Shown: positions 45 through 39,135, counted from the stretch's first letter. The stretch is 41,584 bases of DNA from an uncultured Pirellulales bacterium (GCA_964618485.1 CAZUBB010000009.1:4425-46008); one strand, 5' to 3'. The notes: a model not told the origin generated them from the sequence alone. Translations and numbers: made by a program.

Positions 45-2198
45 GTGGGGCGTCCGCTACAGCGAGTTGGGCAGCCGAGCGCGCCGCCCAGCGCCGTGAC
101 GATGTTGCGAATCGCACTGACAGTGGTACGACGCTGGTGGAAGGCGTTGGTGCCACTCAGCCTGGCGATGTCAGCCCTCGGAGCCGCCGCGGTGTATTGG
201 CAGTTCTCACCGGAATATCAATCAGCCGCCTGGCTTCGGGCTCACTCTCAGGCGCCGTATATCGCCTTTCAGCACAGCGATGACGCCAAACAGTTTGTCG
301 GCAGCCTGAAGGAATTGATGCGCAGCCGATTGCTGCTGGCTTCGGTGGCGAGCGATTCGGAAGTCGCCAACGTGGCCGAACTGGCCGTCGCCGTCGATCC
401 GATTGATGAGCTTGCTCGGCGCCTCGATGTGACGGCCGTGGGGAGTTCGGAATACTTCGCGGTGCACTTTCGCTGCGGCGACCCGGCGGCGGCCGCCGCC
501 GTGGCGAATAAAGTTGCGCAGGCGTTTATCCGCCTGCAGAATTCGGATGAACGCGACCGCAAAGAAAACGTGCTTACTCTGTTGGATGGGGAGCGAAGGT
601 TCCACGAAGGGACGGTCAAGCAACTCCGCAGTGACTTGGAGCGGCTGACAAGGGCGGCAACCGGCCAGCCGGCGGCGCCCGCGCCTAAGAATCAGGTGCA
701 ACCCCCTTCCGCCCTGGCCGAATTGCAGAGCCGGATGGTCAGCGTGGACGTCGAGTCCGCCGTGCTGCGTGCTGAAATCGAGTCGCTCAAGCAGTCCCCG
801 GAAACGGCTCCGCAGCAAATCTCCGAAGTTGAAATCGACGCCGCGATGAATCAGGACACCGGCGTGCTGCAGTTGCGCGATGAAATCACCCTGCTCGCGG
901 ACGAGCTGCGGGACTACGAGCGGGATGCGGCACCGGGCTACTTGAAGCAATCGACGGGATACCAGCGGACGACGTCGTTGCTCCAGTCGCGCAAGGAAAA
1001 GCTGGAAGACCTGCGCAAGCAGATTCGCGAGCAGGTCGTGGCGAGTTCACAATCGACATTGGAGGCGCGCCGCCGGGACGCCATCAACAGCAAGGAATCG
1101 GCGTTGCGCAGTCACGATATTGTGCGCAACGTTCTCAAGGAACAGTTCCAAAACGAGCTCAAGCAAGTCAAGCAGCAGAGCGGAGACTCGCTCGAACTGG
1201 AGTTCAAGCGGGCGGAACTCGAACAGGCCACACAAGTCTTCAATCTCGTTTCGCAGCGGATGCTGCAACTAAGGACGGAAATGAGGGCCCCTGACCGGGT
1301 CGTGCTGGTCGAGACGGCGACAGTTCCGGCGCAGCCACTGGAGAGTTTGCCTTTCAAGAAGATGCTGGTCGCCGCCGTGGCGCTGCTTATCGCTCCGTTC
1401 GGGCTGGCGATCGGCTGGGAGCGATGGATGGATCGCGTCGGCGATTCCGGACATCTGGAACAGCAGGCCCAGTTGCGCGTCTTGGGCGAAGTCGTCTCCA
1501 ATCCGCGCATTCGCGGTGCACAACGCACTCTGACGCTGCAGAAGCGCGATCCGATGAATGCGTTGTACGAAGAGTGCGTCGACAACCTGTGCACCAGCTT
1601 GCTGCTCGCCGAGCCGACGTGCCGCGCCCGCGTCGTCGCCTTCACCAGCGCGATTAGTCGAGAAGGCAAGACGAGCCTGGCGGTTCAGTTCGCTTCGAGC
1701 GTCGCCCGGGCGACGCGTTTGCCGGTGTTGTTGATCGACGGCGATATGCGGTACCCGGACATTCACAAGATTTTTGGCGCCGCCTCGTCACCGGGGTTGG
1801 CGGAAGTGCTGGCGGGCGGGGCGCGCTTCGCCGACGCGGTGGTGACGAATCGGCACGAACTGGTTCACATCCTGCCGGCCGGCAAGCTCAAGGAAAGCCC
1901 GCACAAGTTGCTGGGACAGAACGCGTTCAGCGAATTGCTGGCGGAAGCGCGCAAGCACTATCACTTCATCGTGATCGACACACCGCCCTTGCTCGCGGCG
2001 GGCGAGGCGCTGGTGCTGGCGAAAGAGGCCGACACCGCGCTGATGTGCACGATGCGAGACCTGAGCCGAGTGCCGCAGGTTCGAGCGGCGCAACAGAAGC
2101 TCTTAGACGCGGGGGTTCCGCTGTCGGGAGCCGTGTTGAGCGGCGTCTCGTCCGGCGGATATCGCTTCCGTTACGGCGGTTACGAGTTCCGGAGTTAG
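45..2198 (+). CDS. Polysaccharide chain-length determinant (Wzz-like) fused to a BY-type tyrosine autokinase (Wzc/EpsF-EpsG-like)
   Basis: 717-aa ORF with an N-terminal TM and Wzz-like segment (FSPEYQSAAWLRA), a long coiled-coil and a second TM (LVAAVALLIAPFGLAIGW). The C-terminal P-loop domain has Walker A AISREGKTS, Walker A' VLLIDGDMRYP, Walker B FIVIDTPP and a terminal Tyr cluster GGYRFRYGGYEF. The ORF opens at GTG 45; ATG 102 (MLRIALTVV) is an equally plausible start. Confidence 0.85.
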   Translation: MGRPLQRVGQPSAPPSAVTMLRIALTVVRRWWKALVPLSLAMSALGAAAVYWQFSPEYQSAAWLRAHSQAPYIAFQHSDDAKQFVGSLKELMRSRLLLASVASDSEVANVAELAVAVDPIDELARRLDVTAVGSSEYFAVHFRCGDPAAAAAVANKVAQAFIRLQNSDERDRKENVLTLLDGERRFHEGTVKQLRSDLERLTRAATGQPAAPAPKNQVQPPSALAELQSRMVSVDVESAVLRAEIESLKQSPETAPQQISEVEIDAAMNQDTGVLQLRDEITLLADELRDYERDAAPGYLKQSTGYQRTTSLLQSRKEKLEDLRKQIREQVVASSQSTLEARRRDAINSKESALRSHDIVRNVLKEQFQNELKQVKQQSGDSLELEFKRAELEQATQVFNLVSQRMLQLRTEMRAPDRVVLVETATVPAQPLESLPFKKMLVAAVALLIAPFGLAIGWERWMDRVGDSGHLEQQAQLRVLGEVVSNPRIRGAQRTLTLQKRDPMNALYEECVDNLCTSLLLAEPTCRARVVAFTSAISREGKTSLAVQFASSVARATRLPVLLIDGDMRYPDIHKIFGAASSPGLAEVLAGGARFADAVVTNRHELVHILPAGKLKESPHKLLGQNAFSELLAEARKHYHFIVIDTPPLLAAGEALVLAKEADTALMCTMRDLSRVPQVRAAQQKLLDAGVPLSGAVLSGVSSGGYRFRYGGYEFRS

Positions 2199-2246
2199 TC
2201 TCCACCCTGATCGTGTTTCGGATGCGGCCGAATACTCATTGCTAAG

Positions 2247-5200
2247 ATGCGGCGGTTGATCGACACCTTGTTCTCTGCAGAGCAGCCTGATCACGGTCGC
2301 GTGGTCAATTGGAAACTGCTCGGCGTCAGCCTCGCGCTGCTGGCCGTCGCGTTGCCGTCGCTCCATTTCTGGCAGCGCTACCAGGTTCGTCGCAACGCGT
2401 ACGGATTGCTCGAGCGCGCTACGGCATTGGAAGGTGAACAGAAGTGGCGCGAGGCCGCTGACTACGCCTATCGTTATCTGGTGCTGGTCCCCGATGACCC
2501 GACAGCCCGGGCTCAGTTAGCCCGCGCGTTCGGCAAGTCTGCCGTCACGCCAGCACAACAACGCCGGGCGATCGAGCTTTACTATCTGGCCGCGGGCGTC
2601 AATACCGGTGAGGTCCAGCGCGAATGCAATCGCAATGCGATGTCGCTGTTGTGGGAAATGGGCCGGCATGAAGAAGCGGTGCAACAGGCAGAGTTCGTGC
2701 TAAAGAGCGCTCCTGCGGATCTCCCCGCGCTGCGGATTCGGGCATTGGCCCAGTTAGCAGGTTACCGGGAAGGCACTCTGTCGACCGAGAGGACTGTTCA
2801 GGCCGGGCTGTACGAGGAGCTCCAGACGACGTGGGAACTGCAACCGCAGGATCTGGAGCTGGCCGGTGCGATGGCGATCGTGTATCGCGAACAACCGGAG
2901 CTGTTGCCGTCGGAATTGACGAACATTCAGGGGGAGCGGGAACGACGGGCCGACGCAGTGATGGATCGGCTTGTCGAGGTTGCAGCGGAGAATCCGCGGG
3001 CGCACGTGAGCCGTTTCCTCTATCGAACGCAGTACCGACTGCCCGGGGCTGAACAGGATCTGGAGACGGCCACGCAATTGGGTTCGAAAGATTCTGCGGT
3101 CCAGACGTTGGCGGCCCGCTATTGGCTCGGCCAGGCCAGGGAATCGCTGGAGCGTCCACAAACTACGGAAGTCACGGCGAAGTCGCAGCAAGCGCTCGAT
3201 CGCGCTACCGCCATTTACCAGCACATGATCGACAACTTGAGCGACGTCACCGAGTTGGCGCATATCGAGCTGGGAGATGCGCAATCGCTTCGTGGCGACG
3301 CGGATGAGGCGTTCGCAACGTGGGAAAAGGGCCTGCGAGCCCTGCGCGGGTCAAGCCTGGCATTGAACATGAGGTTGGCCGAGGTTCTGACGGATCGGGG
3401 CGAAGTCGACCGGGCTGCTGAACAGGTGCAGCGCGTACAGGGCGAGTTTGAACGTCAGGGCGGCTCCGATCCTGCTGAAGTCGAGATGACTCGCCGGTTG
3501 ATTCAACTTCTGCGCGCTCAGATCTTCGTGGCAAAAGGCGACCTGGCGGAAGCGGAGAAAATGCTTGAGAAGGCGGCGCTGGCGGGCATTTTGAGCGACG
3601 CCGTGAGCCTCCGTGCGCAGCGTGTTTGGTTCGCGTTGGGCGAAGCGCGTGGACGAATCGGCGCCTGGGATCAGGCGGCCGCGGCGTTCGAGCAAGCGAC
3701 CCGGTTGGAGTCTCGCGGCGCCGGTTCGCAGTTCGGCGCGGCGGTGGCCTGGCATCACGCGCACCGACTGGACCTGGCGATCCCGTACTACCAGCAAGTG
3801 GCAAAACAGGCGGAGTCGTTCGACCTGTGGCTCGCCTTAGCCGAAGCGCGCCTGGAGCAAAATGCGTCGCATGTGGAATCCCAGGGGGATTGGCAGGCGG
3901 TTCGTGAAGCGCTCTCCAGGGCACGGGAACTTGCCCACAACGCTCCTTCCGGCCCCAGGGCGAAACCTTGGCGAGTGGCGCTGGTCGAAGCCAAAGTGAT
4001 CGTGGCCGGCGGCGACGGCTTAGATGCTTCCGACGCGGACCGCCGTCGGCGCGCGGCAGAGTCGCTGCGTGCGCTGGAGGTGGAAGGCGCTGCGGATCCT
4101 GAGTGCCTAAGCGAGTTGGCGCTGCAATATGCCCGGCTGGGCGATCTCGCCGCGGCGCGGCGCGTGGCGGCGCGATTGGAGACCTTGGTCGGCGGCGATT
4201 ATCGCTGGATCGTGGTGCAGGCGAATCTCGACGCGGTGGACGGTCGCCTCAGCGATGCTAAGACAGCAGTGGAAACGGCGCTGGCGCAAACGAGCGACAC
4301 CAAAGCGAGAATTGAGCTATTGCGGGCGTTGACCGGCGTCAGCTTGCTCGATCAAGATCTGGCCACGGTGCGCACGTCGCTCGAGTCGCTTCACGAGCTC
4401 GAACCCTGGAATCTGCAGACAACGACTCAACTTGCGGAATTGAACGTCCAACTGGCGGATTTCGCGGCCGTTGAGCGGCTGCTGCATAAATTCGATGCCG
4501 CCGGCGCGAGCGGGCGAACCATCGGGCTCTATTGCCAATGCTTGTCCCTGCTGTCGCAAGCGACAGGTCCACATGATCCGCGCGTGGTGCAGGCGCGCAC
4601 CATTCAGCAGACCCTGGAACGGGAGCGCCCGAGTTGGTGCGCCACGCATGCTCTGAAAGGTCGCTTGGAAGAAATGCAAGGATTGGTAGCGCAGGCGGCC
4701 GAGTCCTACAGCGACGCGCTGTCCCTGGGCGAACGGCGGCCGTGGGTGCTGGAACGCCAGGCGATGCTACTGATTCAGCTACACCGCTACGAGGAATCGG
4801 AGTTGCTGTTGCGCCGCTTGCAGGCGAACGGAGTACTCCAGGGAAAATTGGTTCTCGCGCCGAGCGACGGCCGTGATTTAACGCCACTGCTGGAAATGGC
4901 GCGGCGCGCCGCCGAACGCAATCCGCGCGATGCCCAGCCGCGGGTTTGGTTGGGGTATCTGCTGCTGCGACAATCTCGAGAGTCGACGCCGCCGGACGCC
5001 ACGTCGCTTTCGAGTGCGAAGCAGTGCTTTGAGGAGGCGCTGGCGATCGCTCCCCGCGATGGGTCGGCTTGGAACGGCCTATTCACCTATCATGTGCAAA
5101 CGGGACAGAAACAGGAAGCGCGCCGCGTGCTCGACGAGCTTGTCGCGGCCTGCGTCAGTGACGAACCCCAACGGGTTTTTGTGCGTGCCCAGGGCTATGA

Positions 5201-6719
5201 AGCGCTCCAGGACTTCGAGGCCGCTTCTCGCGAGTATTTGCGCGCCGCGGAGTTGTCGCCTGCGAATCAAATGGTGCAACTTCGCTTGGCCGGCGTGTAT
5301 TGGAAGACCGATCCCGCGCGGGCTGAAAAAGTGCTGCGCGAGATTCTACGGAAAGATCCGCAGTCCCAGGAGACGCGTCGCGCCTTGGCATCGCTCATCG
5401 TCGGCCGCAACGGCGTGAAAGCGTTAGATGAGGCGTTGTCGCTCGTGGAATGCGGCGCCCGACCTGATCGCGCCGCCACCGTCGATCTGCGATTACGAGC
5501 TCGCCTGCTGCTGCAGAAGTTGACGGGGGTAGCCGAGGCTCGGCGGGAAGCGCGGTTGCTGCTGGAAACACTGTCGAGCCGGCAAGGGGAGGCAACGGCT
5601 GAAGACTTCTTCCTGCTGGGCCAGGTATGTGAAGGCTTGCTTGAATTTGACGTCGCCGAAAGGCAGTTTTCAGCGGCCGCGTCGGCGGAGGATTGTTCCA
5701 AGGAGCGGCTCGCCGGATGCGCGGAGCGACTGCTGCATTACGAAAACGTCGATGCCGCGGGGCACGCCATCGCCAAGCTGACGCAACAAGAACCTGAATC
5801 GCCGCGAACGATCGGCCTCCGGGCTCAATGGCTCGTGGCGTCGGATCGACGCGACGACGCTATTACGGAATTGCAGACATGGGCGGATCTCGGTTGGATT
5901 TCCGCTCCGGACACGCGCCGCAAGGTCGAACACTGCGCCACGGCGGCAAGCATTCTTGAGTCGCTGGAGATGTTCAGCGAGGCGGAACTGTGGCGGAGGC
6001 GCGCTCATGAACTGAATTCCAGCAGCTATCCTGCCTTGGCATTGAATTTGGCGTTGCAGGGGGGCGGCAAAACGCGAGAAGCGATTCAACTCTGCCTCCA
6101 GGCGAACCGTGCCGAGAGCTCGCCGCGGAGCGCGATCGCGCTCGCCTCGGTGGTGGTTGCGTCGAATACTCATGCTCCGTTGGATCCCGCCATCGGGGAG
6201 GCATTCCAAGCGGCCCTCGATCGCCACGCGAAGAACCCTGATTTGTTGATCGCGCTCGCGAATGTGGACGTGGTGATGGGGGACGAAGCAGCGGCGGTGG
6301 CGAAGTACGAGCAAATCCACCGCCTGCGTCCAGAGGACGCCGAGGTCATGAATAATCTGGCGTCGTTGTTGGCCGACGATCCCAGGCGTCACGCCGAAGC
6401 GTTGGAATTGGTGCGCAAAGCGCGCGATCGCGCCGGCGACAACCTGCAATTGCTTGATACCGAGGCGCAGATCCTGTTGTCGCAGGGAAACGCCGACGCG
6501 GCGATCAACCGCCTTGAGCAGGCCGCGAGCGCCGACCCATTGGATCCTCGCGTGCAGATTCATCTGGCCGCCTCGTATCACCGGGCCGATTTGTCCGACA
6601 AGGCGCGCGCGGCGTTGGATCGCGTGAGCGCGGCGTCGCTGGCTCGGGAACTGCTCACGAAACGCGATCGCGACCTCTATGCCCTCCTGACGAACGAGCT
6701 CGGCACGTCGCCTCAATAG
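2247..6719 (+). CDS. Very large membrane-anchored TPR-repeat protein (PrsT-like PEP-CTERM-system TPR protein analogue)
   Basis: 1490-aa ORF with an N-terminal hydrophobic anchor (LLGVSLALLAVALPSL). The rest is Ala/Leu/Arg/Glu-rich helical-repeat sequence with many TPR-like units (e.g. AEVMNNLASLLADDPRRHAEALELVRKA). It sits directly after the chain-length/kinase gene. Confidence 0.75.
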   Translation: MRRLIDTLFSAEQPDHGRVVNWKLLGVSLALLAVALPSLHFWQRYQVRRNAYGLLERATALEGEQKWREAADYAYRYLVLVPDDPTARAQLARAFGKSAVTPAQQRRAIELYYLAAGVNTGEVQRECNRNAMSLLWEMGRHEEAVQQAEFVLKSAPADLPALRIRALAQLAGYREGTLSTERTVQAGLYEELQTTWELQPQDLELAGAMAIVYREQPELLPSELTNIQGERERRADAVMDRLVEVAAENPRAHVSRFLYRTQYRLPGAEQDLETATQLGSKDSAVQTLAARYWLGQARESLERPQTTEVTAKSQQALDRATAIYQHMIDNLSDVTELAHIELGDAQSLRGDADEAFATWEKGLRALRGSSLALNMRLAEVLTDRGEVDRAAEQVQRVQGEFERQGGSDPAEVEMTRRLIQLLRAQIFVAKGDLAEAEKMLEKAALAGILSDAVSLRAQRVWFALGEARGRIGAWDQAAAAFEQATRLESRGAGSQFGAAVAWHHAHRLDLAIPYYQQVAKQAESFDLWLALAEARLEQNASHVESQGDWQAVREALSRARELAHNAPSGPRAKPWRVALVEAKVIVAGGDGLDASDADRRRRAAESLRALEVEGAADPECLSELALQYARLGDLAAARRVAARLETLVGGDYRWIVVQANLDAVDGRLSDAKTAVETALAQTSDTKARIELLRALTGVSLLDQDLATVRTSLESLHELEPWNLQTTTQLAELNVQLADFAAVERLLHKFDAAGASGRTIGLYCQCLSLLSQATGPHDPRVVQARTIQQTLERERPSWCATHALKGRLEEMQGLVAQAAESYSDALSLGERRPWVLERQAMLLIQLHRYEESELLLRRLQANGVLQGKLVLAPSDGRDLTPLLEMARRAAERNPRDAQPRVWLGYLLLRQSRESTPPDATSLSSAKQCFEEALAIAPRDGSAWNGLFTYHVQTGQKQEARRVLDELVAACVSDEPQRVFVRAQGYEALQDFEAASREYLRAAELSPANQMVQLRLAGVYWKTDPARAEKVLREILRKDPQSQETRRALASLIVGRNGVKALDEALSLVECGARPDRAATVDLRLRARLLLQKLTGVAEARREARLLLETLSSRQGEATAEDFFLLGQVCEGLLEFDVAERQFSAAASAEDCSKERLAGCAERLLHYENVDAAGHAIAKLTQQEPESPRTIGLRAQWLVASDRRDDAITELQTWADLGWISAPDTRRKVEHCATAASILESLEMFSEAELWRRRAHELNSSSYPALALNLALQGGGKTREAIQLCLQANRAESSPRSAIALASVVVASNTHAPLDPAIGEAFQAALDRHAKNPDLLIALANVDVVMGDEAAAVAKYEQIHRLRPEDAEVMNNLASLLADDPRRHAEALELVRKARDRAGDNLQLLDTEAQILLSQGNADAAINRLEQAASADPLDPRVQIHLAASYHRADLSDKARAALDRVSAASLARELLTKRDRDLYALLTNELGTSPQ

Positions 6720-6722
6720 GAA

Positions 6723-7400
6723 ATGATGCAAGAACGACCCAAAAAACGAGCGATTCGGAGCGCGGCCTTCGCGATCGTCGTTCTGACGTGCTTTACGGTC
6801 GCATCAGGAATCGTGACTCGCACCAGCCGCGCGCCTGCAAGTTCAGGCCGATCGCAAGCGGTCGCCACGGCGATGGCGACCTATCCCGCGGAACTCGGCG
6901 CGTGGCGCCAGATCGCGGCCTTGCAACTTGATCAAGTGACCATTCAGGAGCTGCAGTGCCAGGCATACCTGCATCGCGTTTTCGAAAACCAGCGCACCGG
7001 CCGTTCGGCACATGTTCTGGTCCTGCTCGGACCAACTGGGACGATTTCCCTTCACACGCCTGAAGTGTGTTACTCCTCACGCGAGTTTGAGATTCTTGGC
7101 GCGTCGCAGCGCGTTCGGGTGACGGATGATGGTGGGACGGCGCATGAGTTTTGGCTGGCGCGAGTGCGGCGACGCGACGCCTCGGAGCAAGTTCTACGAG
7201 TCTATTACGGCTGGGGAGCGGATCGCGCCTGGAAAGCTCCCAGCAATCCGCGCTTCGAATACACGTTTGCGCCCGACCTCTTCAAATCGCAAATCGTCTT
7301 TCCCGAGACGGAAGTGAGCGGTGGCGTTGACGAGGAGCGCGACTTTCTTCGCGAGTTCCTGAGTACATCTGCAGGTCGTTTCTTCCTTGATCCTTCATAA
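6723..7400 (+). CDS. EpsI-family (exosortase-associated, DUF3485-like) protein
   Basis: 225-aa ORF with an N-terminal TM (AAFAIVVLTCFTVASGIV). The pattern YPAELGAWRQ...YLHRVF...HVLVLLGP...LHTPEVCY...VYYGW fits the EpsI family signature (P..lg.W, then H.PE.C). It starts 4 nt after the TPR gene stop. Confidence 0.7.
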   Translation: MMQERPKKRAIRSAAFAIVVLTCFTVASGIVTRTSRAPASSGRSQAVATAMATYPAELGAWRQIAALQLDQVTIQELQCQAYLHRVFENQRTGRSAHVLVLLGPTGTISLHTPEVCYSSREFEILGASQRVRVTDDGGTAHEFWLARVRRRDASEQVLRVYYGWGADRAWKAPSNPRFEYTFAPDLFKSQIVFPETEVSGGVDEERDFLREFLSTSAGRFFLDPS

Positions 7401-7505
7401 CGTGTCGCACATCCAGTGCGACGAACTTCACGCTTCGTTCGCGGTGCGCGCCCCGTGATGCAGCATTGTGAACAACTGGACTCCTAATCTCATGACGAGG
7501 CACCG

Positions 7506-8417
7506 ATGTCTGTGAGTACCGTCACCGAGCCGCAATCGCGGCTTCACTTGGACGACCAGGCGTATCCGTATGCCGCTAGTCGGCAGCATGCACCGGTCGC
7601 TGCGCCGTATGCCACGCGAAAGCACTTGCTGGACAGCGTCATTGCTGCGCTGCTGTTGATTCCGGCGCTGCCGATCATCGGACTGCTGCTACTGCTGGTG
7701 CGGGCGACATCGCCAGGGCCGCCGTTATTCCGCCAGGTTCGTGTCGGCCGCAACGGCGCCACGTTCAAGGTTCTCAAGATTCGCACCATGCGTTGCGATG
7801 CCGAGAAGGTTGGCGGCGCGCAATGGTGCTCCGGCGTGTCCGACCCGCGCGTCACGCGCATCGGCAAGGTGATCCGCCGGCTGCATTTGGACGAGTTCCC
7901 GCAATTGATCAACGTGCTCCGCGGCGAAATGGCGCTCGTCGGCCCCCGGCCTGAGCGGCCGGAGTTCGTGGACGTGCTTTCGCGCGCCATCCCGGGATAC
8001 GCGCGGCGTCATGACGTGCGGCCGGGAATTACGGGCGTCGCGCAGATCAATTTGCCGCCCGACACTGACCTGGAGAGCGCTTGCCGCAAACTTGAGCTGG
8101 ACCTGCAATACATTCAGCAGTCCCGGCTCTCCCTCGACCTGCGCGTCATCGCCTGTACCGGTCTGCGATTGTTCGGCATTCGCGGCAACTTCTTGATCTG
8201 GCTTACCGGCGTGCGTCGAGTACCCACGGGCGCAGTCGCCCTGCCTGCCGTGGACGCAGAGTATGCAAACCGTCCGATGACTCCGGAGTTGATCGCTCAG
8301 ATCGCGCAATCGTCGCCAAGTAGCGTTCCGAGTCCGCGGTCGGCGACTCATGGGTGCAACGGCGACGGTGAAATGGCCCCCGCTTCGATCGCCGCGACCA
8401 AGCGAAAAGCGCGATAG
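7506..8417 (+). CDS. Polyprenyl-phosphate sugar-1-phosphate (priming) transferase, Bac_transf family
   Basis: 303 aa with a TM (VIAALLLIPALPIIGLLLLLV) followed by PGPPLFRQVRVGRNGATFKVLKIRTM and DEFPQLINVLRGEMALVGPRPERPEF, the classic WbaP/EpsB-type C-terminal catalytic motifs. Confidence 0.9.
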   Translation: MSVSTVTEPQSRLHLDDQAYPYAASRQHAPVAAPYATRKHLLDSVIAALLLIPALPIIGLLLLLVRATSPGPPLFRQVRVGRNGATFKVLKIRTMRCDAEKVGGAQWCSGVSDPRVTRIGKVIRRLHLDEFPQLINVLRGEMALVGPRPERPEFVDVLSRAIPGYARRHDVRPGITGVAQINLPPDTDLESACRKLELDLQYIQQSRLSLDLRVIACTGLRLFGIRGNFLIWLTGVRRVPTGAVALPAVDAEYANRPMTPELIAQIAQSSPSSVPSPRSATHGCNGDGEMAPASIAATKRKAR

Positions 8418-9351
8418 TGCGGCGACCGATTCGCAATCTATTGTCACTGGGCAGAGCAGCTTGTTAAACGCGCTGACGATCGACGTCGAAGACTATTTTC
8501 AAGTCTCTGGATTTGAGCGGCAGATTCCGCGCGCGGACTGGCCGTCCTTCCCTTCTCGCGTCGAAGCAAATACCGAACGCTTGTTGGCGATTCTGGACGC
8601 ACACCAGGTGCGCGGAACGTTTTTTATCGTCGGCTGGACGGCGGAGCGGCATCCCGCGCTCGTGCAGCGGATCAAAGCCTGCGGGCATGAAATCGGGTCT
8701 CACAGCTACTGGCATCGCCTGGTTTACGAGCTTTCACCGGAGGAATTCCGCGCAGATTTGAGACGTTCTTGCGACGTGTTGTCGTCGCTCACCGGCGACC
8801 CGGTCCGGCTGTATCGGGCGCCGAGTTTTTCCGTGGTTCGGCAGACGCCATGGGCGCTGGAGATCCTGTCGGAAGAGGGAATTCACATTGATTCCAGCAT
8901 TTATCCGATCGTGCATGATCGGTACGGCATTCCCAATGCCCACCCGGGACCGCACCGGATCGAGACGAAATCCGGGTTGCTCTGGGAAGTGCCGCCGGCC
9001 GTGATGCGTTGGGGGCGATTCCGCTTTCCCGCCGGTGGCGGCGGTTACTTCCGGATGTTTCCCTGGATGTACAGCCGATTCTGCCTGAATCAGATCAATC
9101 GGCGCGCCGACTTGCCGTTTGTGTTCTATCTTCATCCATGGGAGTTGGATCCCGACCAGCCACGGCTGCGCGCCGGGTCGCGATCCGGCCGGCTGCGGCA
9201 CTACGCCAATTTGCGCCATACCAAGACGAAACTCGAGTTGCTCCTCAAGCGATTTCAATTTGGTTCGCTGTCGCAATCGCTGCATGCGATCGTCTCTCGG
9301 ATGCCGGAGATCGGAACTCCGAGGTCCTTGTTGAGCGCGGTGGCAGGATGA
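8350..9351 (+). CDS. Polysaccharide deacetylase family protein, PEP-CTERM-locus subfamily type
   Basis: NALTIDVEDYFQVSGFERQIPRADWPSFPSRVEANTERLLAILDAHQVRGTFFIVGWTAERHPALVQRIKACGHEIGSHSYWH matches the N-terminus I remember for the XrtA-locus deacetylase family. ATG 8350 overlaps the upstream gene by 68 nt; an in-frame TTG at 8461 is an alternative start. Confidence 0.85.
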   Translation: MGATATVKWPPLRSPRPSEKRDSAATDSQSIVTGQSSLLNALTIDVEDYFQVSGFERQIPRADWPSFPSRVEANTERLLAILDAHQVRGTFFIVGWTAERHPALVQRIKACGHEIGSHSYWHRLVYELSPEEFRADLRRSCDVLSSLTGDPVRLYRAPSFSVVRQTPWALEILSEEGIHIDSSIYPIVHDRYGIPNAHPGPHRIETKSGLLWEVPPAVMRWGRFRFPAGGGGYFRMFPWMYSRFCLNQINRRADLPFVFYLHPWELDPDQPRLRAGSRSGRLRHYANLRHTKTKLELLLKRFQFGSLSQSLHAIVSRMPEIGTPRSLLSAVAG

Positions 9352-21005: not shown

Positions 21006-21197
21006 CCAGATTACACGCGGACGTACAAGCAATACAAGAATGAACACGCTTCCACGAGTCAGCATCGATCCGACTTTCGGCGTTACGTGGCCGATGGCCG
21101 TGACTGGGATTTCGCTGGCCGATCCATTCTGGCCATTTATTTTGCGTCGGCCGAGCGAGGGGACACGGTGAGGGCATCGCACGCCATTCGTCGCAGA

Positions 21198-28314: not shown

Positions 28315-28356
28315 GTGTTGGTGCTCCTCAAGCAAGATGAAGGAAGGATTGAGGAG

Positions 28357-29271: not shown

Positions 29272-29361
29272 GGCTGCTCCTGAAGAGTCACAAATCGCCA
29301 CAGGTCGTACGCCGCGCAACCGTCAACGCAACGCCGACCTGTGCTGAGTTTTCACTACCGT

Positions 29362-30102: not shown

Positions 30103-30516
30103 CGTCGCACCTATCTGGCATTTGCTGCCGGCAAAACATGGATGTACGTCCCAGGTTGATTCGTTTCACCCGGCAGTCCCCCGAGGTGCGCCCAACACGG
30201 CGGCCCGCCGCAATTTCGCGGCGGCGAATCGCAACAGAATCTGTCCCTAAATTCCGCACAATCGGCCCATCCAGTCTACGCTGCATGTACGCAAAGCGCC
30301 AAGCAAGAAACAAGTAAAATACGTGGTACAATTGCGCAAGTCGCGCGGGTCTGACCAGGCTTTGACTTTCATCGAACGCCTTGCAGCGGCACGCGTTACG
30401 TGAAAGACTCGATCGCTGCAGGCGGCCTTGGCGACGACCCAAACCTGCCGCTCATGCGGCGCTCATGTGCGTTGCCAAATTGCAACGCGCCAACTCGCTT
30501 TTCTTGATGCTTTGTC

Positions 30517-32076
30517 ATGGCTCGGCGACCACGCCCCCCACAACGTTCGACGATCCAGCCTGCGGATTCCCCACTGCTCCAGGCGGCGCGGCGGGCGTTT
30601 ATGGAGCACCGCTACGACGACAGCCTGGAGCAATTCGATCTGGCCGTTCAGTCGCTGCCCAAGAACCCCGTAGCCCTCGTCGATGCCGCCCGGGCCCATG
30701 CCCTGCGGCACGACCGGGCGCGTGCCGCCGCGCTGGCCGGGCGCCTGCAACGACTCGCTCCGGACGATCCGGAAATCCAGATTCGCGCGGGCGAGCTTTA
30801 CCGGCTGATGGACCTGCGGAGCGAGGCGGTGGAGTGCTTCGAGCGCCTGGCGACCTCCCCACGCCCCCAGCCGCGGGCGCTGCTGGAGCTCGCGGCGATG
30901 TACGAGCGACTGCACCGGCTGGACGAGGCCCGCGCGGCGGTGGATCGGCTCCTGCACCTCGATCCGCAGCACGCGGGTGGACAGATCGTCCGCGCCCGTA
31001 TCGAGCGCCGGCAAGGCGCCCTTGAGGCCGCGATCAGCACGTTGCGCCAGTTGCTCTCACGCACCGAACTTGAGCCACGTATCGTCGCCGAAGCCTGGGG
31101 GGACCTCGCCCGCGCGCTGGATGAGCAGGGGGACTACGACGCGGCCTGGGAGGCGATCCTCCAGTGCAAAGCGGCGCAGCTTCCGCGAGCTGAGCCTGCG
31201 CAAGTCGCGGCGAGGCACGTTGCCGCGCGATGTTCACGGATGCTCGATGAGCTGACCACGGCGCACTTTCGGCGCTGGAAGGAACCGCCACACGAAGATG
31301 CTCCACGGCGTCTCGCATTGCTGACCGGCTTTTTGCGCTCCGGTACCACGCTGCTGGAGCAAGTGCTCAAGGTACAACCAGACGTGATCAGCACCGAAGA
31401 GCGCGATATCTTTTCGGCCAACATTTTCCCATTTCTCGGCCGTGGGAAGCCGAATGACTTTCCGGTGGTGCAACTGCTCGATGAGCTCGTGCCGTCCACG
31501 CTCGTCGACGCGCGGCGGCGGTACGAGCGCGTCGTCGAGGCGTATCATCGCGAGCCGCTCGCCGGGCGGCTGCACATCGACAAGAACCCGGCGATGAACC
31601 TGATGATTCCGCTGGTGACGCGCGTCTTCCCGGAAACGCGGCTACTGGTCACGCTGCGCGATCCGCGCGACGTGATACTCAGCTCATTCTTGCGATACCT
31701 GGCAATCACGCCGGTGAGCGTGAATTTCCTCTCGCTGGAAGGAACCGTCGACAAGTATCTCTTCGACATGCAAGCTTGGCTGCGGCTGCGCGAGTTGATC
31801 GCCACGCCTTGGCTGGAAATCCGCTACGAGCAGGTCATCGAGAACCTGGAAGCGGAAGCCCGGCGCGTGTTTGAGTTTCTCGGGCTCGCCTGGAATCCGG
31901 CGGCGCTTGCGTTCCACGAAGAAGCTCGCCGCCGCCCCGCCACGTCTCCCAGTTACGCGGAAGTCACATCGCCAATTCACCGCCGCGCGGTCGCCCGATG
32001 GCGCCACTACGAGCGCCACCTCGCGCCGCAACTCGATCGCCTGGGACCGATTCTCGAGGCGCTTCGGTACGCCTAA
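30517..32076 (+). CDS. TPR-repeat-containing PAPS-dependent sulfotransferase family protein
   Basis: The N-terminal ~200 aa are TPR-like helices. The C-terminal domain has the 5'-PSB loop LLTGFLRSGTTLLEQVL and the 3'-PB motif LVTLRDPRDVILSSF. Confidence 0.85.
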   Translation: MARRPRPPQRSTIQPADSPLLQAARRAFMEHRYDDSLEQFDLAVQSLPKNPVALVDAARAHALRHDRARAAALAGRLQRLAPDDPEIQIRAGELYRLMDLRSEAVECFERLATSPRPQPRALLELAAMYERLHRLDEARAAVDRLLHLDPQHAGGQIVRARIERRQGALEAAISTLRQLLSRTELEPRIVAEAWGDLARALDEQGDYDAAWEAILQCKAAQLPRAEPAQVAARHVAARCSRMLDELTTAHFRRWKEPPHEDAPRRLALLTGFLRSGTTLLEQVLKVQPDVISTEERDIFSANIFPFLGRGKPNDFPVVQLLDELVPSTLVDARRRYERVVEAYHREPLAGRLHIDKNPAMNLMIPLVTRVFPETRLLVTLRDPRDVILSSFLRYLAITPVSVNFLSLEGTVDKYLFDMQAWLRLRELIATPWLEIRYEQVIENLEAEARRVFEFLGLAWNPAALAFHEEARRRPATSPSYAEVTSPIHRRAVARWRHYERHLAPQLDRLGPILEALRYA

Positions 32077-32246
32077 TCGTGGCCTGGCAATTGCGCAAGT
32101 TGCCGTGACATCCCATACCACCTCGCTCAGTCTCTTTCTTATAGGCGTGCGGTGGGGACCGTAAACATTCCTAGCTTTCGCTGAATGCGGCTCGACGATC
32201 TCATTCCGTCTTGACGCTTGCCGGCTGCCGACCTAGCCTCCGCGGC

Positions 32247-33290
32247 ATGATGCAAACAATCCGCTATGTGCCTGGCGTGATTACCCTGTTGTGCCTCGGG
32301 TTCAGCACCTTCGTGCGCGCCGCGGAACCGATCGCGCTCGCTCCGGAAGAGGGGATTCTGATCCTGCAGAACGGCGAAGTGATCGCCGGTAAGATCACGC
32401 AGTCGGGCAATCGCTACTACGTCGCCCTGCCGAACGGCGAGCTGCGGTTGCGGGCCGAGGATGTCGCATTGCGCTGCAAGGATCTGGCGGAAGGTTATGC
32501 CAAGAAACGCGCAGCGTTGAACGGCACGAGGGTCGACGAGCATTTGGAGTTGGCTCAATGGTGCCTTTCCCACGGCTTGCTCGACGAGACAGAAGCGGAG
32601 ATCCGCTATGGCGCGACAATTGACCGCGGGCACCCGCGTCTGCGGTTGTTGGCGCGGAAACTGGAACTAGCGCGCTCCAAGCCCGAGGTGCGTGCGCCGC
32701 TCGCGACAACGCCTCCCCCGGCAAGCGACGCGGAGGCGCTCGAAGCGCTCACGAAATCGGTTCCGGCGCCGATCATGCAACGTTTTGCCACGACCGTGCA
32801 ACCGTTGTTGACGAACTCCTGCGCCACGACGGGCTGCCATGGCGTGTCGGGAAAATCGACGTTCACCCTGACGAAGATTCGCGGGCAAGGGGATCGGGCG
32901 CGACGGCAAACGCTGCGCAATCTGATGGCGGTGCTCGACCAGATTGATCGTCAGCGCCCGCAAGAGAGCCCGCTGCTGACCAAGCCGATCGAGCCGCACG
33001 GCGGCGGTAAGGCGGCGATCTTTACGGCCAAGAACAGCCGCCAATACTACGAGCTTTATGAATGGGTGCGACTTGTGACGGGGGAGCGGCCGCCGACCTA
33101 TGCGACCGCATCGCCCACGCCCTCAGGTGGCCAGGAAGCGGAGGTGGCGACCGATGGAGACATTGAGCAAGCGGCATTCGCGACGGACGTCGAGGAAGGC
33201 TCGGACGGCGGATCGGAGGAGAATCCTTACGATCCCGAAGCGTTTAATCGCGGCGCCGGAGCGGCCGCGGGAGACGCCGGAATGCAGTAA
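32247..33290 (+). CDS. Secreted hypothetical protein with a PSCyt-like (planctomycete cytochrome-c-like) segment carrying CX4CH
   Basis: Signal peptide MMQTIRYVPGVITLLCLGFSTFVRA-AEP. Central VQPLLTNSCATTGCHGVSGKSTFTL...SPLLTKPIEPHGGG and an acidic low-complexity tail. The ORF is open from 32211. Confidence 0.6.
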   Translation: MMQTIRYVPGVITLLCLGFSTFVRAAEPIALAPEEGILILQNGEVIAGKITQSGNRYYVALPNGELRLRAEDVALRCKDLAEGYAKKRAALNGTRVDEHLELAQWCLSHGLLDETEAEIRYGATIDRGHPRLRLLARKLELARSKPEVRAPLATTPPPASDAEALEALTKSVPAPIMQRFATTVQPLLTNSCATTGCHGVSGKSTFTLTKIRGQGDRARRQTLRNLMAVLDQIDRQRPQESPLLTKPIEPHGGGKAAIFTAKNSRQYYELYEWVRLVTGERPPTYATASPTPSGGQEAEVATDGDIEQAAFATDVEEGSDGGSEENPYDPEAFNRGAGAAAGDAGMQ

Positions 33291-33350
33291 CGCGCTCCGT
33301 TGCGAAAGCAGTCGTCACTCCGGGCGCTGACGCTTACCGCTCCAGGGATC

Positions 33351-35718: not shown

Positions 35719-35728
35719 TGGTGTGAAG

Positions 35729-36166
35729 TCAGTCCAGCTTGATCTCGAGGTCGTCGACCGCCTCTTTAATCTCGATCCGCAGCTTCTCGCCCATGCCGCC
35801 GTATTTCTCGACGATGGCTTGCTCTTCGGGGTGGTGCTTCACCTTCACCTTGCCGGTTTCTTCGTCCAGGCTCATCGCCTTGAAGCGAACGACGACCGTG
35901 TGCATGCCGACCTTGGCGCCATCGCGTTCGGGGTCGTAGCTGAGCTTGAAGTAGCCATTCTCATCGGACCGGCCCCAGCTCGGGCGGCCTTCATCCGGCA
36001 AGAAGGTAACGGTCAGGTTCGGCACCGGTTTGCCGCCTCGCGTCAGGCGTCCCTCGACTTCCACGACGTCGGGACCCGAGCCGCCGCAGCCGGCGGTCAG
36101 CAGCAACGAGAAGGAGGCGAAGGCGCCGGCAATTGCTGCGAAGAAACGAGGAGCTTTGGTTGTCAT
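35729..36166 (-). CDS. Small lipoprotein (carboxypeptidase-regulatory-like beta-sandwich?), partner of the DUF1559 gene
   Basis: MTTKAPRFFAAIAGAFASFSLLLTAGC-GGSG is a signal peptide with a lipobox-like Cys, followed by VEVEGRLTRGGKPVPNLTVTFLPDEGRPSWGRSDENGYFKLS. ATG at 36166. Confidence 0.7.
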   Translation of the reverse strand: MTTKAPRFFAAIAGAFASFSLLLTAGCGGSGPDVVEVEGRLTRGGKPVPNLTVTFLPDEGRPSWGRSDENGYFKLSYDPERDGAKVGMHTVVVRFKAMSLDEETGKVKVKHHPEEQAIVEKYGGMGEKLRIEIKEAVDDLEIKLD

Positions 36167-36320
36167 GGGGATTCGGTAGTTGGGAAAAGTCGCTTGGGCG
36201 ATGGGAAATCTCTCAACACGGACGACAAACAACAGGCGTCAATTAAACGAGAAGCTGGAGGCGAATGCAACCATTCGCCCCCAGCGTTTTCGATTGGTCG
36301 GAATGACACTGCGTGTCGAA

Positions 36321-37343
36321 CTAGCGGAAGAACAGCAACCTCATGTCGTCCGTGCCCATGGCGCGCGTGAAGTTGGCGGCGTAAGTCAGCATGTTGATGT
36401 CGTTGCTCACGAACTCGACGCGTCCATCGCAATACGACACCATGACTCCGCCGACGTGCTTGCTCGCGGCGCCGCGGTGATTGTAATCGGTGCTGTTCGG
36501 CGGGGTCGGGAAGCCGATGTTGATCGGATTGTTTTCGCCCGACGGGTGTTCCGCGCAAGTCACGTACCCTTCCGAAATGTGGTGCGTGAAGATAAACGAA
36601 TTGCAACCGGCGTCGGGCGGGCAGAAGCTGTGCGAACCGGTATGGGCGAACTCCAGAAACATGTAGGTGTTGCTCATCCCGTCCTTGATGTCCTTGATCT
36701 TCACCTTGCTGTCGAGCCAGGAGATGCCTTTGTGATTACGAGCCAGTTCCTTGCCGCGCCAGCGTTCCGGGCAGCAGTTGCCGGTGCCGTAATTGACGCC
36801 GTAATCCTTCATGATGCCCGGGCCGATCATCAACGGCACGGAGGGGCAGGCGAACGTCGCCGGCATACTTTCACAGGCCTGCTTGTTCTTGACGTCCCCA
36901 CCGACAATCGGAGTCGGTTTTGCGCCATAACCGATCCCTGATTGGCCGACCTCGTAGATGTAACCGGTGTAAGCCGGAACGCGGAAGTCGATCGCTTTGT
37001 AGAGACCTTGCTGTTCCATGAACGGAAGGATGTGCGCGCTCCAGTTGAAACTGCCCCAGGGCAGGCCGCCATTCTGAAACGCCGACGAGGGATTGTCAGT
37101 CGGCCTCCCACTGCGGTCGGTCGTCTTCTGATACGTGTTGCCCGGGACGATTTGCTTGTACGTGCTTTCGTACGTCAGCATGGCCAACGACAACTGCTTC
37201 ATGTTGTTGGTGCACTGCGCGCGCCGCGCGGCCTCGCGGGCGACCTGCAGCGCCGGCAAGAGGAGGGCGATCAGAATCCCGATGATGGCGATCACGACCA
37301 GCAACTCGACCAGCGTGAAGCCGCGTGCATGACGGCGGTTCAT
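36321..37343 (-). CDS. DUF1559 protein with N-terminal prepilin-type cleavage/methylation signal and C-terminal H-X9-DG motif
   Basis: [55 protein letters not shown], and near the C-terminus [12 protein letters not shown] (H, 9 residues, DG). SD GAGGAG lies 7 nt before ATG 37343; the ORF is open to 37364. Confidence 0.9.
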
Positions 37344-37523
37344 AGAAAAACTCCTCAATGACATTCAATGAGACAAGTATGACCAAGCGCCGGCCGCGCG
37401 AACGCGCAACCGATGGACTCTGCCGACTGGCCGCGGACTGGGGTGAATCGCCTCCTTGCCGACGATTCCTGCCTTGACTAGGACCCCCGGGTTCCACCTT
37501 CAAAGTCTACCAGCACCCTAACC

Positions 37524-37538
37524 ATTCGACAATCGAAT
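37524..37538. promoter_or_regulatory. Inverted repeat ATTCGA-N3-TCGAAT in the AT-richer DUF1559 upstream region
   Basis: Perfect 6-bp arms at 37524-37529 and 37533-37538, about 180 nt upstream of the DUF1559 start and next to an AT-rich stretch (37541-37575). Confidence 0.25.
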
Positions 37539-37677
37539 AGTGCATTTAGAATTGTAAGTTTTGTGTTTGCGCAGCGTACGTGAGTCCTCACCCAACCGGC
37601 CATTTCGAGCCTGGCTGATCGCCGCGCGGCCAACACCGGCGGCAAATGCCCACTTTGGGGAGGACAGGGGCGACTTG

Positions 37678-39135
37678 CTATGAAACGCCGCGGCCGCGCC
37701 AACGTTTCGGGCGTTGGAACGCCAGGGCCGCCGCGCCGATCAAAACAATCAAGATCGTGGCCGGCTCCGGGACAGCGGTCGCGGCGCCGCCGAAGTCGTT
37801 ACGGACATTATTGAGGTCGTTTAAGTCGACGATGCCGTCGAAGTTGGTGTCTCCGAGGCCGGCGCCACCGAAGTTGTTCCGCACGTTGTTGAGATCGACG
37901 AGATCGACACGGCCGTCGTCGTTGGTGTCCCCCCATAATGGGAGCAATTTAAAGACCTCGCCGCCGAGATCGACGATGTACAGTTCGCCCGCGGCGTCTT
38001 CGCCGAACGAAGAGATCTGATCGATGGTCCCGATGTTGGAAATGATGCGCCGGGAGCGGTTTTGGAACTCCGTCTTGGTCTCGCCGTCGTAACGGAACGT
38101 CCAGAGTTGTTCGGTCGCGTAATCGGCGAAGAAATAAGTTCCGTTAAGATAAGGCATGGCGTCGCCTCGGTAGACCGGTCCGCCAGTGACGGCATAGCCG
38201 CCATTGGGCGTCGATTCATGGGGATATTCGTGGATCGGCGGCGTAAACCGCGGATCGTTGCATTCCCAACCGGAGGCCGTGTTCGCGCAGGAGGTGCCCT
38301 CCATGACCTTCCAGCCGTAGTTCACGCCTCCAGGACTGTCGCCCGGTTGGAAATTGACCTCTTCCAGGTCGTTCTGACCGACATCGGCGATATAGAGGGC
38401 GCCGGTATCGCGATCGAAACCATTCCGCCAAGGATTGCGAAGCCCGTAAGCCCAAATCTCGTCGTCTCCTTCGACGCCGACGAAGGGATTGCTGAGCGGG
38501 ATTCCATACTGGCCCGTCGGCCCGTCGCGACCGTCGACGTCGATCCGCAGCATCTTGCCCAGCTTTTGCTGCGTGATGTCGAGGGCGCGGTTGCCGGGGT
38601 CGTTCCCCGATCCGCCGTCGCCCGAGGCAATATAGAGGTAGCCGTCGTTGGGCCCGAAGCCCATCCAGCCGCCGTTGTGGTTGGAAAAGGGCTGCGCGTA
38701 TCCCATTACCAGGCGCATGCTGTTGGGATCGGCGACATCAGGGTTGTCGCCGACGGCGTACTCGCGAATCTCCGTCGCGCCGCTCGATAGCGTCAAGTTC
38801 ACATAGAACTTGCCGTTGTTGACGAAGTCGGGGTGGAAGGCCAGGCCGAGCAGGCCTTGCTCGTTTCCTGTTGAGAGCCCGCTGAGATCGAGAAAAGGCG
38901 TGGGATTGATCGCGCCGGTGGTTTGATTGCGGATCTTGATGATGCCGGTGTGCTGCTCTGCGATGAACAGCCGGTTGAAGTCGCCCGCCGGCGAACCGGC
39001 GTAAATCGGGCGTGCGAGGCCCGAGACAACGCGTTGGGCGGTGACCGAAGCGCCCTGCGCTTCCCACACCCCCCAGGTATAGAACGCCATCGGGACGATC
39101 GCCAAGGCGATCGCATGCAGCAGTTGCCGGCTCAT
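37678..39135 (-). CDS. PQQ-dependent sugar dehydrogenase (soluble glucose/sorbosone dehydrogenase family) fused to a dockerin-type module and a PEP-CTERM anchor
   Basis: Signal/TM MSRQLLHAIALAIVPMAFYTW. GSDH motifs GLLGLAFHPDFVNNGKFYVN, SNHNGGWMGFGPNDGYLYIASGDGG, YGLRNPWR. Dockerin-like GDTNDDGRVDLVDLNNVRNNFG...GDTNFDGIVDLNDLNNVRNDFG. C-terminal VPEPATILIVLIGAAALAFQRPKRWRGR. Confidence 0.88.
   Translation of the reverse strand: MSRQLLHAIALAIVPMAFYTWGVWEAQGASVTAQRVVSGLARPIYAGSPAGDFNRLFIAEQHTGIIKIRNQTTGAINPTPFLDLSGLSTGNEQGLLGLAFHPDFVNNGKFYVNLTLSSGATEIREYAVGDNPDVADPNSMRLVMGYAQPFSNHNGGWMGFGPNDGYLYIASGDGGSGNDPGNRALDITQQKLGKMLRIDVDGRDGPTGQYGIPLSNPFVGVEGDDEIWAYGLRNPWRNGFDRDTGALYIADVGQNDLEEVNFQPGDSPGGVNYGWKVMEGTSCANTASGWECNDPRFTPPIHEYPHESTPNGGYAVTGGPVYRGDAMPYLNGTYFFADYATEQLWTFRYDGETKTEFQNRSRRIISNIGTIDQISSFGEDAAGELYIVDLGGEVFKLLPLWGDTNDDGRVDLVDLNNVRNNFGGAGLGDTNFDGIVDLNDLNNVRNDFGGAATAVPEPATILIVLIGAAALAFQRPKRWRGRGVS

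Follow-up and report, generated by a model that had tools for sequence, protein, structure and literature searches.

The described systems with which the present locus is best compared are the XrtA/PEP-CTERM exopolysaccharide (EPS) system of Proteobacteria, set out by Haft et al. 2006 (PMC1569441) and represented in NCBIfam by TIGR03109 and a set of marker families, and that of the planctomycete Rhodopirellula baltica, for which 12 PEP-CTERM proteins, the EpsH protein RB2461 and linkage to an EPS locus were recorded in the same work (PMC1569441). The Pfam model PF07589 was first built from R. baltica paralogues, and PEP-CTERM proteins have been found to be required for floc formation (PMC9850573). 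Here we analysed a 41,584-nucleotide stretch of DNA (the window) from an uncultured Pirellulales bacterium (GCA_964618485.1, CAZUBB010000009.1:4425-46008), which carries an EPS operon, four genes for PEP-CTERM proteins (cargo A, B, C and D) and a sulfotransferase gene. We are confident that it holds two separable modules of a Pirellulales-like planctomycete and represents an unnamed variant of the known exosortase/PEP-CTERM EPS system, cut at the window edge. Module 1 (1-22547) is very probably a nearly complete Wzy/Wzc-type EPS operon belonging to an exosortase system, and module 2 (26647-32076) is in all likelihood a cargo operon (C, B, A) with a divergent gene for a cytoplasmic sulfotransferase that combines tetratricopeptide repeats (TPR) with a domain like that of the tyrosylprotein sulfotransferases (TPST).

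Like the XrtA system, the locus as reconstructed with its relatives would place an exosortase in an EPS operon together with EpsI, a large TPR protein, a TIGR03006 deacetylase, a TIGR03087 glycosyltransferase, a Wzy_C/TIGR03097-like protein, an AsnB-like amidotransferase and a Wzc-like kinase, with PEP-CTERM cargo in the genome. Unlike in the XrtA system, the related exosortases score 134-154 where the cutoff is 208 and stand slightly nearer to XrtD and XrtW, the kinase and a 1500-aa TPR protein come between exosortase and EpsI, the latter scoring below all EpsI model cutoffs, the PrsT, stp2, TIGR03097 and TIGR03108 matches are sub-cutoff, and no PrsK/PrsR pair was seen in the window. With R. 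baltica the locus shares the phylum and the sorting signal; planctomycete exosortase/PEP-CTERM systems, known since 2006, are not new in themselves. In contrast to R. baltica, for which no EpsI, PrsT, PrsK or PrsR is listed (PMC1569441), the window has an EpsI-like gene, a TPR protein in the PrsT position and XrtA-type EPS markers.

An exosortase gene most likely lies just beyond the window edge

The gene map was drawn from an open reading frame (ORF) listing and translation, with NCBIfam and Pfam scans, and "cutoff" denotes the curated model cutoff throughout. A previous reading made from the window's sequence alone (the sequence-only reading) had described a variant EPS locus with an orphan EpsI, no visible exosortase, and an operon spanning 45-22547. 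Indeed, tblastn with two related exosortases found no exosortase homologue inside the window. The right end of the operon holds at 22547, but its start is not at 45: the first gene, encoding a Wzc-like kinase, runs off the left edge. Its frame is open from nucleotide 3 up to the edge, and residues 7-737 of the kinase from a related locus, L001, align to nucleotides 6-2192 with 72% identity (tblastn). The alignment therefore places the window start about six codons into the kinase gene, whose real start is probably not the GTG at 45. The window start may coincide with a contig end.

Related loci were reached through the contigs of EpsI homologues and of related exosortases. Four independent ones were compared: L001 (Logan SRR31912327), a JGI contig (sample 3300056388), L005/L006/L007, and L094 from the Pirellulales metagenome-assembled genome (MAG) GCA_016935315.1. 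A PF09721 exosortase gene stands immediately upstream of the kinase gene in all four, and the order is fixed as Exosortase_EpsH (294-348 aa), kinase (~737 aa), TPR protein (1496-1549 aa), EpsI, Bac_transf and deacetylase, followed by a family 4 glycosyltransferase (GT4), Wzy_C, a PcRGLX-like protein and further GT4s. A 4-nt overlap joins the end of the exosortase gene to the start of the kinase gene in both L001 and L005. Gene by gene, the operon in the window follows the order of L001 (48-75% amino-acid identity). Because the edge cuts the kinase gene and the exosortase precedes it in the relatives, the exosortase gene of this organism most likely lies immediately left of position 1. Judged by this synteny, EpsI, three genes downstream of the exosortase in the relatives, is a normal split partner rather than an orphan, the lack of a visible exosortase is a window-edge effect, and the headline of a missing exosortase mostly dissolves.

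Contig L004, which encodes a 64%-identical exosortase, was considered as a direct link to the window organism and rejected, since it has no overlap with the window start. Upstream of the exosortase in L005 (1-9000) we noted genes for a Wza-type Poly_export protein, a FemAB-like Acetyltransf_6 protein (cf. the FemAB marker of the XrtA system) and a NusG paralogue; in the JGI contig, too, the exosortase is preceded by a NusG paralogue. The NusG paralogues near the exosortase suggest dedicated antitermination of a long operon.

The EPS operon as an unnamed Pirellulales variant

From the left window edge to 22547, the EPS genes are arranged head-to-tail on the + strand (scores are in bits, each with the cutoff where one applies):

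1-2198, + strand: Wzc-like polysaccharide co-polymerase/tyrosine autokinase, 5'-truncated by the window edge (TIGR03018 104.5 < 230.65; TIGR01007 101.8, below cutoff; PF13614 33.5 > 27)
2247-6719, + strand: membrane-anchored TPR protein of 1490 aa in the PrsT position (TIGR02917 155.9 < 312.2; multiple TPR Pfam families; 61% identity to the 1496-aa counterpart in L001)
6723-7400, + strand: EpsI-like protein (DUF3485), stand-alone, with one N-terminal transmembrane helix (PF11984 46.7 > 26.1; TIGR02914 32.9 < 42.8)
7506-8417, + strand: initiating polyprenyl-phosphate sugar-phosphate transferase (PF02397 185; TIGR03025 241.9 < 295.6)
8350-9351, + strand: polysaccharide deacetylase of the XrtA-system type (TIGR03006 351.2 > 276.2; PF01522 and PF11959)
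9348-10607, + strand: GT4 glycosyltransferase of the stp1 family (TIGR03087 425.5 > 316.65; homologue alignment begins at 9348)
10636-11931, + strand: Wzy_C/O-antigen-ligase-like membrane protein, polymerase or ligase, with DUF5935 (PF04932 71.7 > 31.7; PF19358 27.8 > 23.6; TIGR03097 151.2 < 188.1)
11945-14717, + strand: PcRGLX-like (polysaccharide-lyase-like) protein, frameshifted (PF19501 34 > 22.1)
14728-15954, + strand: GT4 glycosyltransferase, stp2-like (TIGR03088 249.3 < 409; Pfam GT4 families pass)
15962-17185, + strand: GT4 glycosyltransferase, stp1-like (250 < 317; Pfam GT4 families pass)
17157-18347, + strand: GT4 glycosyltransferase, stp2-like (150 < 409; Pfam GT4 families pass)
18344-19012, + strand: hexapeptide-repeat acetyltransferase (PF00132 47 > 27)
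19017-21005, + strand: asparagine-synthase-like (AsnB-like) amidotransferase (TIGR03108 668.4 < 816.9; TIGR01536 525.6 > 267.1)
21087-22547, + strand: DUF4910/DUF2172 aminopeptidase-like protein with a winged helix-turn-helix domain, last gene of the operon (PF16254 381; PF09940; PF16221)

The C-terminal tail of the kinase is rich in tyrosine. All 10 detected homologues of the EpsI-like protein are stand-alone proteins of 217-229 aa, and its position is kept in all related operons. A search of GTDB-representative contigs with the 1490-aa TPR protein returned just two weak acidobacterial matches. Two frames are needed to align the 916-aa PcRGLX-like protein of L001, one for residues 1-599 (11945-13738) and another for residues 597-916 (13755-14714). 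This places the frameshift near 13740-13755, where there is no homopolymer; either the gene is a genuine pseudogene or the assembly is in error.

The four related exosortases score from 105.9 (L001, barely over) to 142.6 against TIGR02602 (cutoff 105.55) and pass the exosortase/archaeosortase signature TIGR04178 (61-65 against 23), and all keep the catalytic Cys (QACSGL), Arg and His unchanged. Every named Xrt/Crt subtype cutoff is missed, with 150-174 against 400 for XrtD, 135-156 against 425 for XrtW and 133.8-153.6 against 208 for XrtA (TIGR03109). An exosortase search yielded 479 homologues at E≤1e-3; the named sources are Pirellulales, Pirellulaceae, Thermoguttaceae and Planctomycetaceae MAGs, where the annotation is merely "exosortase/archaeosortase family protein".

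The sequence-only reading had expected the XrtA marker families here, and several do give matches; only the deacetylase model TIGR03006 and the stp1 model TIGR03087 are exceeded, while TIGR02917 (PrsT), TIGR02914 (EpsI), TIGR03088 (stp2), TIGR03097, TIGR03108 and the kinase model TIGR03018 stay below cutoff. Since these are the best or near-best matches of their proteins, the latter are divergent relatives of the XrtA-system families. The label "XrtA-type" itself is not supported, given the XrtA scores of the related exosortases and the passing of only two markers. By homology, the locus appears to work like an XrtA-type EPS/exosortase system without membership in XrtA, as an unnamed Pirellulales variant in which the kinase and the giant TPR protein separate the exosortase from EpsI. 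The broader assignment as a Pirellulales-like PEP-CTERM/exosortase-type EPS locus stands, with a DUF1559 gene in the window and homologues from Pirellulales and Thermoguttaceae MAGs. As exosortase and EpsI fit no named NCBIfam subtype, the conserved exosortase–Wzc–giant TPR–split EpsI architecture is a candidate for the definition of a new Xrt subtype.

Established knowledge of these families allows a mechanism to be proposed for module 1. The phosphoglycosyl transferase and the four GT4s would build a repeat unit on undecaprenyl phosphate, which the deacetylase, acetyltransferase and amidotransferase would modify. The Wzy_C protein would polymerise it, with export aided by Wzc; a Wza-type exporter is encoded upstream in a relative. 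PEP-CTERM proteins would be exported by Sec and retained in the inner membrane by their C-terminal helix until the Cys/Arg/His exosortase, with EpsI, cuts at the PEP motif and passes the cargo to the surface or matrix.

Four modular PEP-CTERM cargo proteins

The components listed in the sequence-only reading, namely a 22-kb EPS operon with EpsI, four PEP-CTERM genes, dockerin-type pairs in three of them and a divergent TPR-sulfotransferase, are all present at their expected positions. A six-frame regular-expression scan of the window found exactly four ORFs ending in [V]PEP, a hydrophobic helix and a basic tail (stops at 26647, 28357, 29362 and 37678, all on the minus strand). Each of the four C-termini passes at least one curated cutoff of the PEP-CTERM models (PF07589, 20.7; TIGR02595, 16), in agreement with their earlier identification:

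26647-28314, - strand: cargo A, with signal peptide, β-rich N-terminal region, two immunoglobulin (Ig)-like repeat modules, dockerin-like pair and PEP-CTERM (PF07589 22.1 > 20.7)
28357-29271, - strand: cargo B, with signal peptide, β-sandwich like a carbohydrate-binding module (CBM), dockerin-like pair and PEP-CTERM (TIGR02595 18.0 > 16)
29362-30102, - strand: cargo C, a paralogue of B (67% identity) without the dockerin pair, with PEP-CTERM (TIGR02595 21.3 > 16; PF07589 25.4 > 20.7)
30517-32076, + strand: cytoplasmic TPR + Sulfotransfer_3 protein, TPST-like, divergent from the cargo operon (PF13469 90.7 bits)
37678-39135, - strand: cargo D, a glucose/sorbosone-dehydrogenase (GSDH) β-propeller with dockerin-like pair and PEP-CTERM (PF07995 116 bits; TIGR02595 17.3 > 16)

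The AlphaFold2 (AF2) model of cargo B, built with 38 homologues, reached a pLDDT of 83. Foldseek matched its β-sandwich to the sugar-binding domain of Fbs1 and to CBM16, CBM22 and CBM27 (E 1e-7 to 1e-5; TM-score up to 0.70, target), with further matches to a hyaluronan-binding module, a porphyran-binding CBM and tailspike lectin domains. The sequence search detected 36 homologues of cargo B. Cargo A was modelled as an all-β protein (pLDDT 80.7), for which Foldseek returned only multi-domain matches of low TM-score to tandem Ig-like structures. A, B and C appear to be adhesin- or lectin-like and D an enzyme passenger; such cargo types fit what is described for PEP-CTERM proteins in Proteobacteria, where they take part in forming matrix and flocs (PMC9850573).

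The small secreted PEP-CTERM proteins of the window resemble the PepA floc proteins of Zoogloea and Aquincola (NF033554; PMC9850573), which act with EPS in aggregation, and cargo C gives a weak full-length match to NF033554 (28 bits). They differ in that this score is far under the cutoff (28 < 80), in the CBM-like fold, in the dockerin-like pair of B and in the link to a sulfotransferase; no RpoN, PrsK or PrsR genes were seen in the window.

The Ig-like repeat of cargo A (window 27000-27700; consensus ...VNTxTGQ..IxNxTG....IDYYxIxSxxGxL....WxSL...) is present twice. It also turns up in many B-family homologues (P0138-P0165), as an optional element placed between CBM-like domain and dockerin pair, and the cargo families therefore appear, from these alignments, to be assembled by module shuffling.

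The sulfotransferase, not the EPS operon, accompanies the cargo

In this genome the EPS operon and the cluster of three cargo genes are ~4 kb apart, and the sequence-only reading took EPS synthesis to be genomically coupled to the cargo. We examined five related cargo loci, each with ±10 kb of flanking sequence: L008, the closest relative with a long contig, and the more distant L009, L010, L091 and L092, whose cargo is 40-50% identical. L008 is syntenic across the sulfotransferase (73% identity), cargo C (75%), B (81%) and A (69%), Hsp20 (93%) and fpg (84%), and its synteny breaks after fpg into unrelated peptidase genes, with no EPS genes within 10 kb beyond the break. Neither EPS nor exosortase genes lie within ±10 kb of the cargo homologues in the other four loci. 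Adjacency of EPS and cargo is thus kept in none of the five, and the proposed coupling is not supported. Conversely, the flanks of the four exosortase loci contain no cargo and no sulfotransferase. A metagenome scan with the DUF4910 protein returned 80 loci (57-66% identity) from other EPS loci, none with cargo or exosortase homologues; this family is too conserved for the scan to select close relatives.

Full-length orthologues of the sulfotransferase (39-73% identity) adjoin B/C-family genes in four of the five loci (L008, L009, L091 and L092), in divergent orientation in two and co-directionally in two; in L010 no sulfotransferase lies within 10 kb of the cargo. With this record, the sulfotransferase belongs with the cargo and not with the EPS operon, and the conserved pairing, as far as gene neighbourhoods indicate, is sulfotransferase plus cargo rather than EPS plus cargo. 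The suggestion that the EPS might be sulfated is likewise not supported, the enzyme also being closest, among solved structures, to protein-tyrosine sulfotransferases.

In L009 (3809-5044, - strand) and L092 (4872-6149, - strand), a further gene for a dockerin-like + PEP-CTERM protein is divergent from the TPR-sulfotransferase gene; the passenger in L009 is an Exo_endo_phos domain. These neighbours raise the possibility that the sulfotransferase may be linked to dockerin/PEP-CTERM proteins in general, beyond the B/C family.

A cytoplasmic TPST-like enzyme

The sulfotransferase has no signal peptide, and its 3'-phosphoadenosine-5'-phosphosulfate (PAPS)-binding motifs, FLRSGTT and RDPRD, are invariant. 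As a single sequence it matches TPST2 and TPST1 best among PDB sequences (E 1e-11). A five-sequence profile strengthens this match to 70-87 bits (E 1e-18 to 1e-24, profile positions 261-518), the next-best sulfotransferases being the polyketide enzymes CurM/OLS at ~34 bits; no carbohydrate sulfotransferase occurs among the top 60 PDB matches. The enzyme also shows a weak match to NoeE, a Nod-factor (carbohydrate) sulfotransferase, and for that reason we keep a carbohydrate acceptor in consideration.

Like TPST1/2 and RaxST (PMC4646787), the protein aligns over the full length of the catalytic domain (~255 residues) and keeps both PAPS-binding motifs. Unlike these enzymes, it has an N-terminal TPR domain of ~250 residues, is predicted to be cytoplasmic, and is tied to Sec/exosortase cargo rather than to a type I-secreted peptide. 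The gene pair of a TPST-like sulfotransferase and a lectin-like PEP-CTERM protein is a lead, worth following, on how planctomycete surface and matrix proteins are modified. Our literature search found no paper naming both "tyrosine sulfation" and "Planctomycetes", and the single paper with both "PEP-CTERM" and "sulfotransferase" was unrelated.

A dockerin-like pair directly before the sorting signal

Alignment of the cargo C-termini revealed a duplicated D-x-[DN]-x-D-G-x-V-D-x-x-D loop plus helix directly preceding the anchor in A, B and D. The dockerin-type pair that the sequence-only reading placed in three cargo proteins is thus present as a motif, but the Dockerin_1 model PF00404 (cutoff 22.9), applied to the excised modules, passes for B alone (25.6), with 19.5 for D and no match for A, whose module is known as dockerin-like only through its 54% identity to that of D. 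The best PDB sequence matches of the D module are the cellulosomal dockerins 2mte/1daq, at a weak E of ~0.04, and the AF2 models of A and B have two short helices at the module, as expected. The module resembles the cellulosomal type I dockerin (PF00404) in its duplicated Ca2+-binding loop-helix of ~22 residues per repeat. It is unlike it in standing immediately before PEP-CTERM on non-cellulolytic passengers and in that two of the three copies are sub-cutoff. We propose that this double Ca2+-loop module would serve as a hook or spacer right in front of the sorting signal.

When 1.84 billion cluster representatives were searched with a profile built from the three tails, 32,112 matched at E≤1e-3 and 2,879 at E≤1e-10. 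Most of the best 150 matches cover the two dockerin repeats together with the C-terminal anchor, and a strict regular expression for dockerin loop and PEP-CTERM tail is satisfied by 83 of them. These counts bear out the idea of a recurrent tail, and the profile matches point to the dockerin-like + PEP-CTERM tail as a very common module on diverse passengers. A literature search found no paper naming both "PEP-CTERM" and "dockerin", and the members of ten such cluster representatives carried neither taxonomy nor informative names. The fusion is hereby quantified as a very common yet apparently undiscussed tail of planctomycete surface proteins.

Alternative explanations

The missing exosortase could also be taken at face value, as in the sequence-only reading: the EPS locus would have lost its linked exosortase, now elsewhere or absent, EPS synthesis, possibly with sulfation, would be coupled to the dockerin cargo, and the Wzy_C protein would join glycan to cargo. 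Such a reading draws on the absence of an exosortase ORF inside the window, the short distance between the EPS operon and the three cargo genes, a nearby sulfotransferase and a protein like TIGR03097 ("putative O-glycosylation ligase"). We nevertheless regard it as highly improbable, because the first gene is cut by the window and the exosortase sits just upstream in four of four related loci, while EPS genes are missing within ±10 kb of the cargo homologues in all five related loci, L008 included, and the sulfotransferase goes with the cargo. The ligase role is further undercut by the TIGR03097 score (151 < 188); with no second Wzy-type polymerase recognised in the operon, polymerisation may simply be the job of the Wzy_C protein. 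An exosortase-type EPS locus cut at the window edge, with a separate cargo module, is our preferred reading, and several observations weigh against it in turn. The exosortase of this organism is placed by synteny rather than seen, most of the XrtA marker models stay below cutoff, neither a Wzx flippase nor a Wza exporter was found in the window, and the frameshift in the PcRGLX-like gene may mean that the operon is partly decayed, unless it reflects an assembly error. Moreover, the adjacency test comprised one close relative and four more distant loci.

Within module 2, the neighbouring PEP-CTERM cargo might itself be the substrate, the enzyme O-sulfating cargo tyrosines in the cytoplasm before Sec export and its TPR domain holding the unfolded substrate; it would then be RaxST-like and dedicated to exosortase cargo. 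RaxST/RaxX is a precedent for bacterial tyrosine sulfation (PMC4646787), the adjacency persists from the window through four of five related cargo loci down to 39-43% sulfotransferase identity, and among solved structures the only strong match, over the whole domain, is to protein-tyrosine sulfotransferases; the invariant PAPS motifs, the absent signal peptide and four near-invariant tyrosines in the cargo family are likewise in keeping with it. However, the acceptor does not follow from likeness to TPST, the family PF13469 is broad and the weak NoeE match points elsewhere; the conserved tyrosines lie in confidently folded β-sandwich regions without a consistent acidic context, the L010 locus lacks a nearby sulfotransferase, and the adjacency could equally mean sulfation of a glycan bound or carried by the lectin-like cargo. 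We consider tyrosine sulfation quite unlikely and tentatively lean towards the glycan alternative as the likelier of the two, at somewhat under even chances. Were cargo tyrosines sulfated, RaxST would be joined by a second kind of protein-tyrosine sulfation in bacteria, and PEP-CTERM cargo would for the first time be tied to a post-translational modification. The dockerin-like modules might, for their part, be true dockerins that plug the cargo into cohesin-bearing scaffolds, with PEP-CTERM as the membrane or matrix anchor, much like the "planctosome" of cohesin/dockerin assemblies proposed for freshwater planctomycetes (PMC6461901). Besides that proposal, the B module exceeding the Dockerin_1 cutoff, the cellulosomal dockerins matched by the D module and the two loop-helix units of the models favour this view. 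No cohesin domain was found, however, in the 24 window proteins scanned with Pfam (seven genes with clear NCBIfam identities were outside the scan), two of the three modules are under the Dockerin_1 cutoff or undetected, and the anchor-side position is explained equally well by a spacer that Ca2+ stiffens or by binding to acidic EPS through Ca2+, so that true dockerins are an outside chance.

Other genes of the window

To the right of the EPS operon follow genes for DUF218, def, fpg and Hsp20, then the minus-strand cargo genes A, B and C. To the right of the sulfotransferase lie genes for a secreted protein without family, an EamA transporter, a class IV aminotransferase, a small lipoprotein, a DUF1559 protein, cargo D and a response regulator/histidine kinase pair. 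The features among them that are not given above are:

32211-33290, + strand: predicted secreted protein of 359 aa, directly downstream of the sulfotransferase (no Pfam or NCBIfam match)
35729-36232, - strand: small lipoprotein ORF adjoining the DUF1559 gene
36321-37364, - strand: DUF1559 pseudopilin-like protein, a planctomycete hallmark
39679-41358, + strand: response regulator with an N-terminal helix-turn-helix, and histidine kinase (generic matches only), adjoining cargo D

The regulator/kinase pair was considered as PrsR/PrsK and ruled out, as the PrsK score is 75.8 (< 300) and the regulator does not belong to the sigma-54 activators. No tRNA or Rfam element was found in the window. The secreted 359-aa protein has a CATTGCHG motif and an acidic, low-complexity C-terminus. 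The small lipoprotein shares 29% identity (E 5e-8) with a protein of 150-196 aa that is paired with DUF1559 genes near the cargo homologues of L009, L010, L091 and L092 and sits directly upstream of them in L009, L010 and L092. A plus-strand ORF overlapping the lipoprotein gene (35723-36370) is probably spurious.

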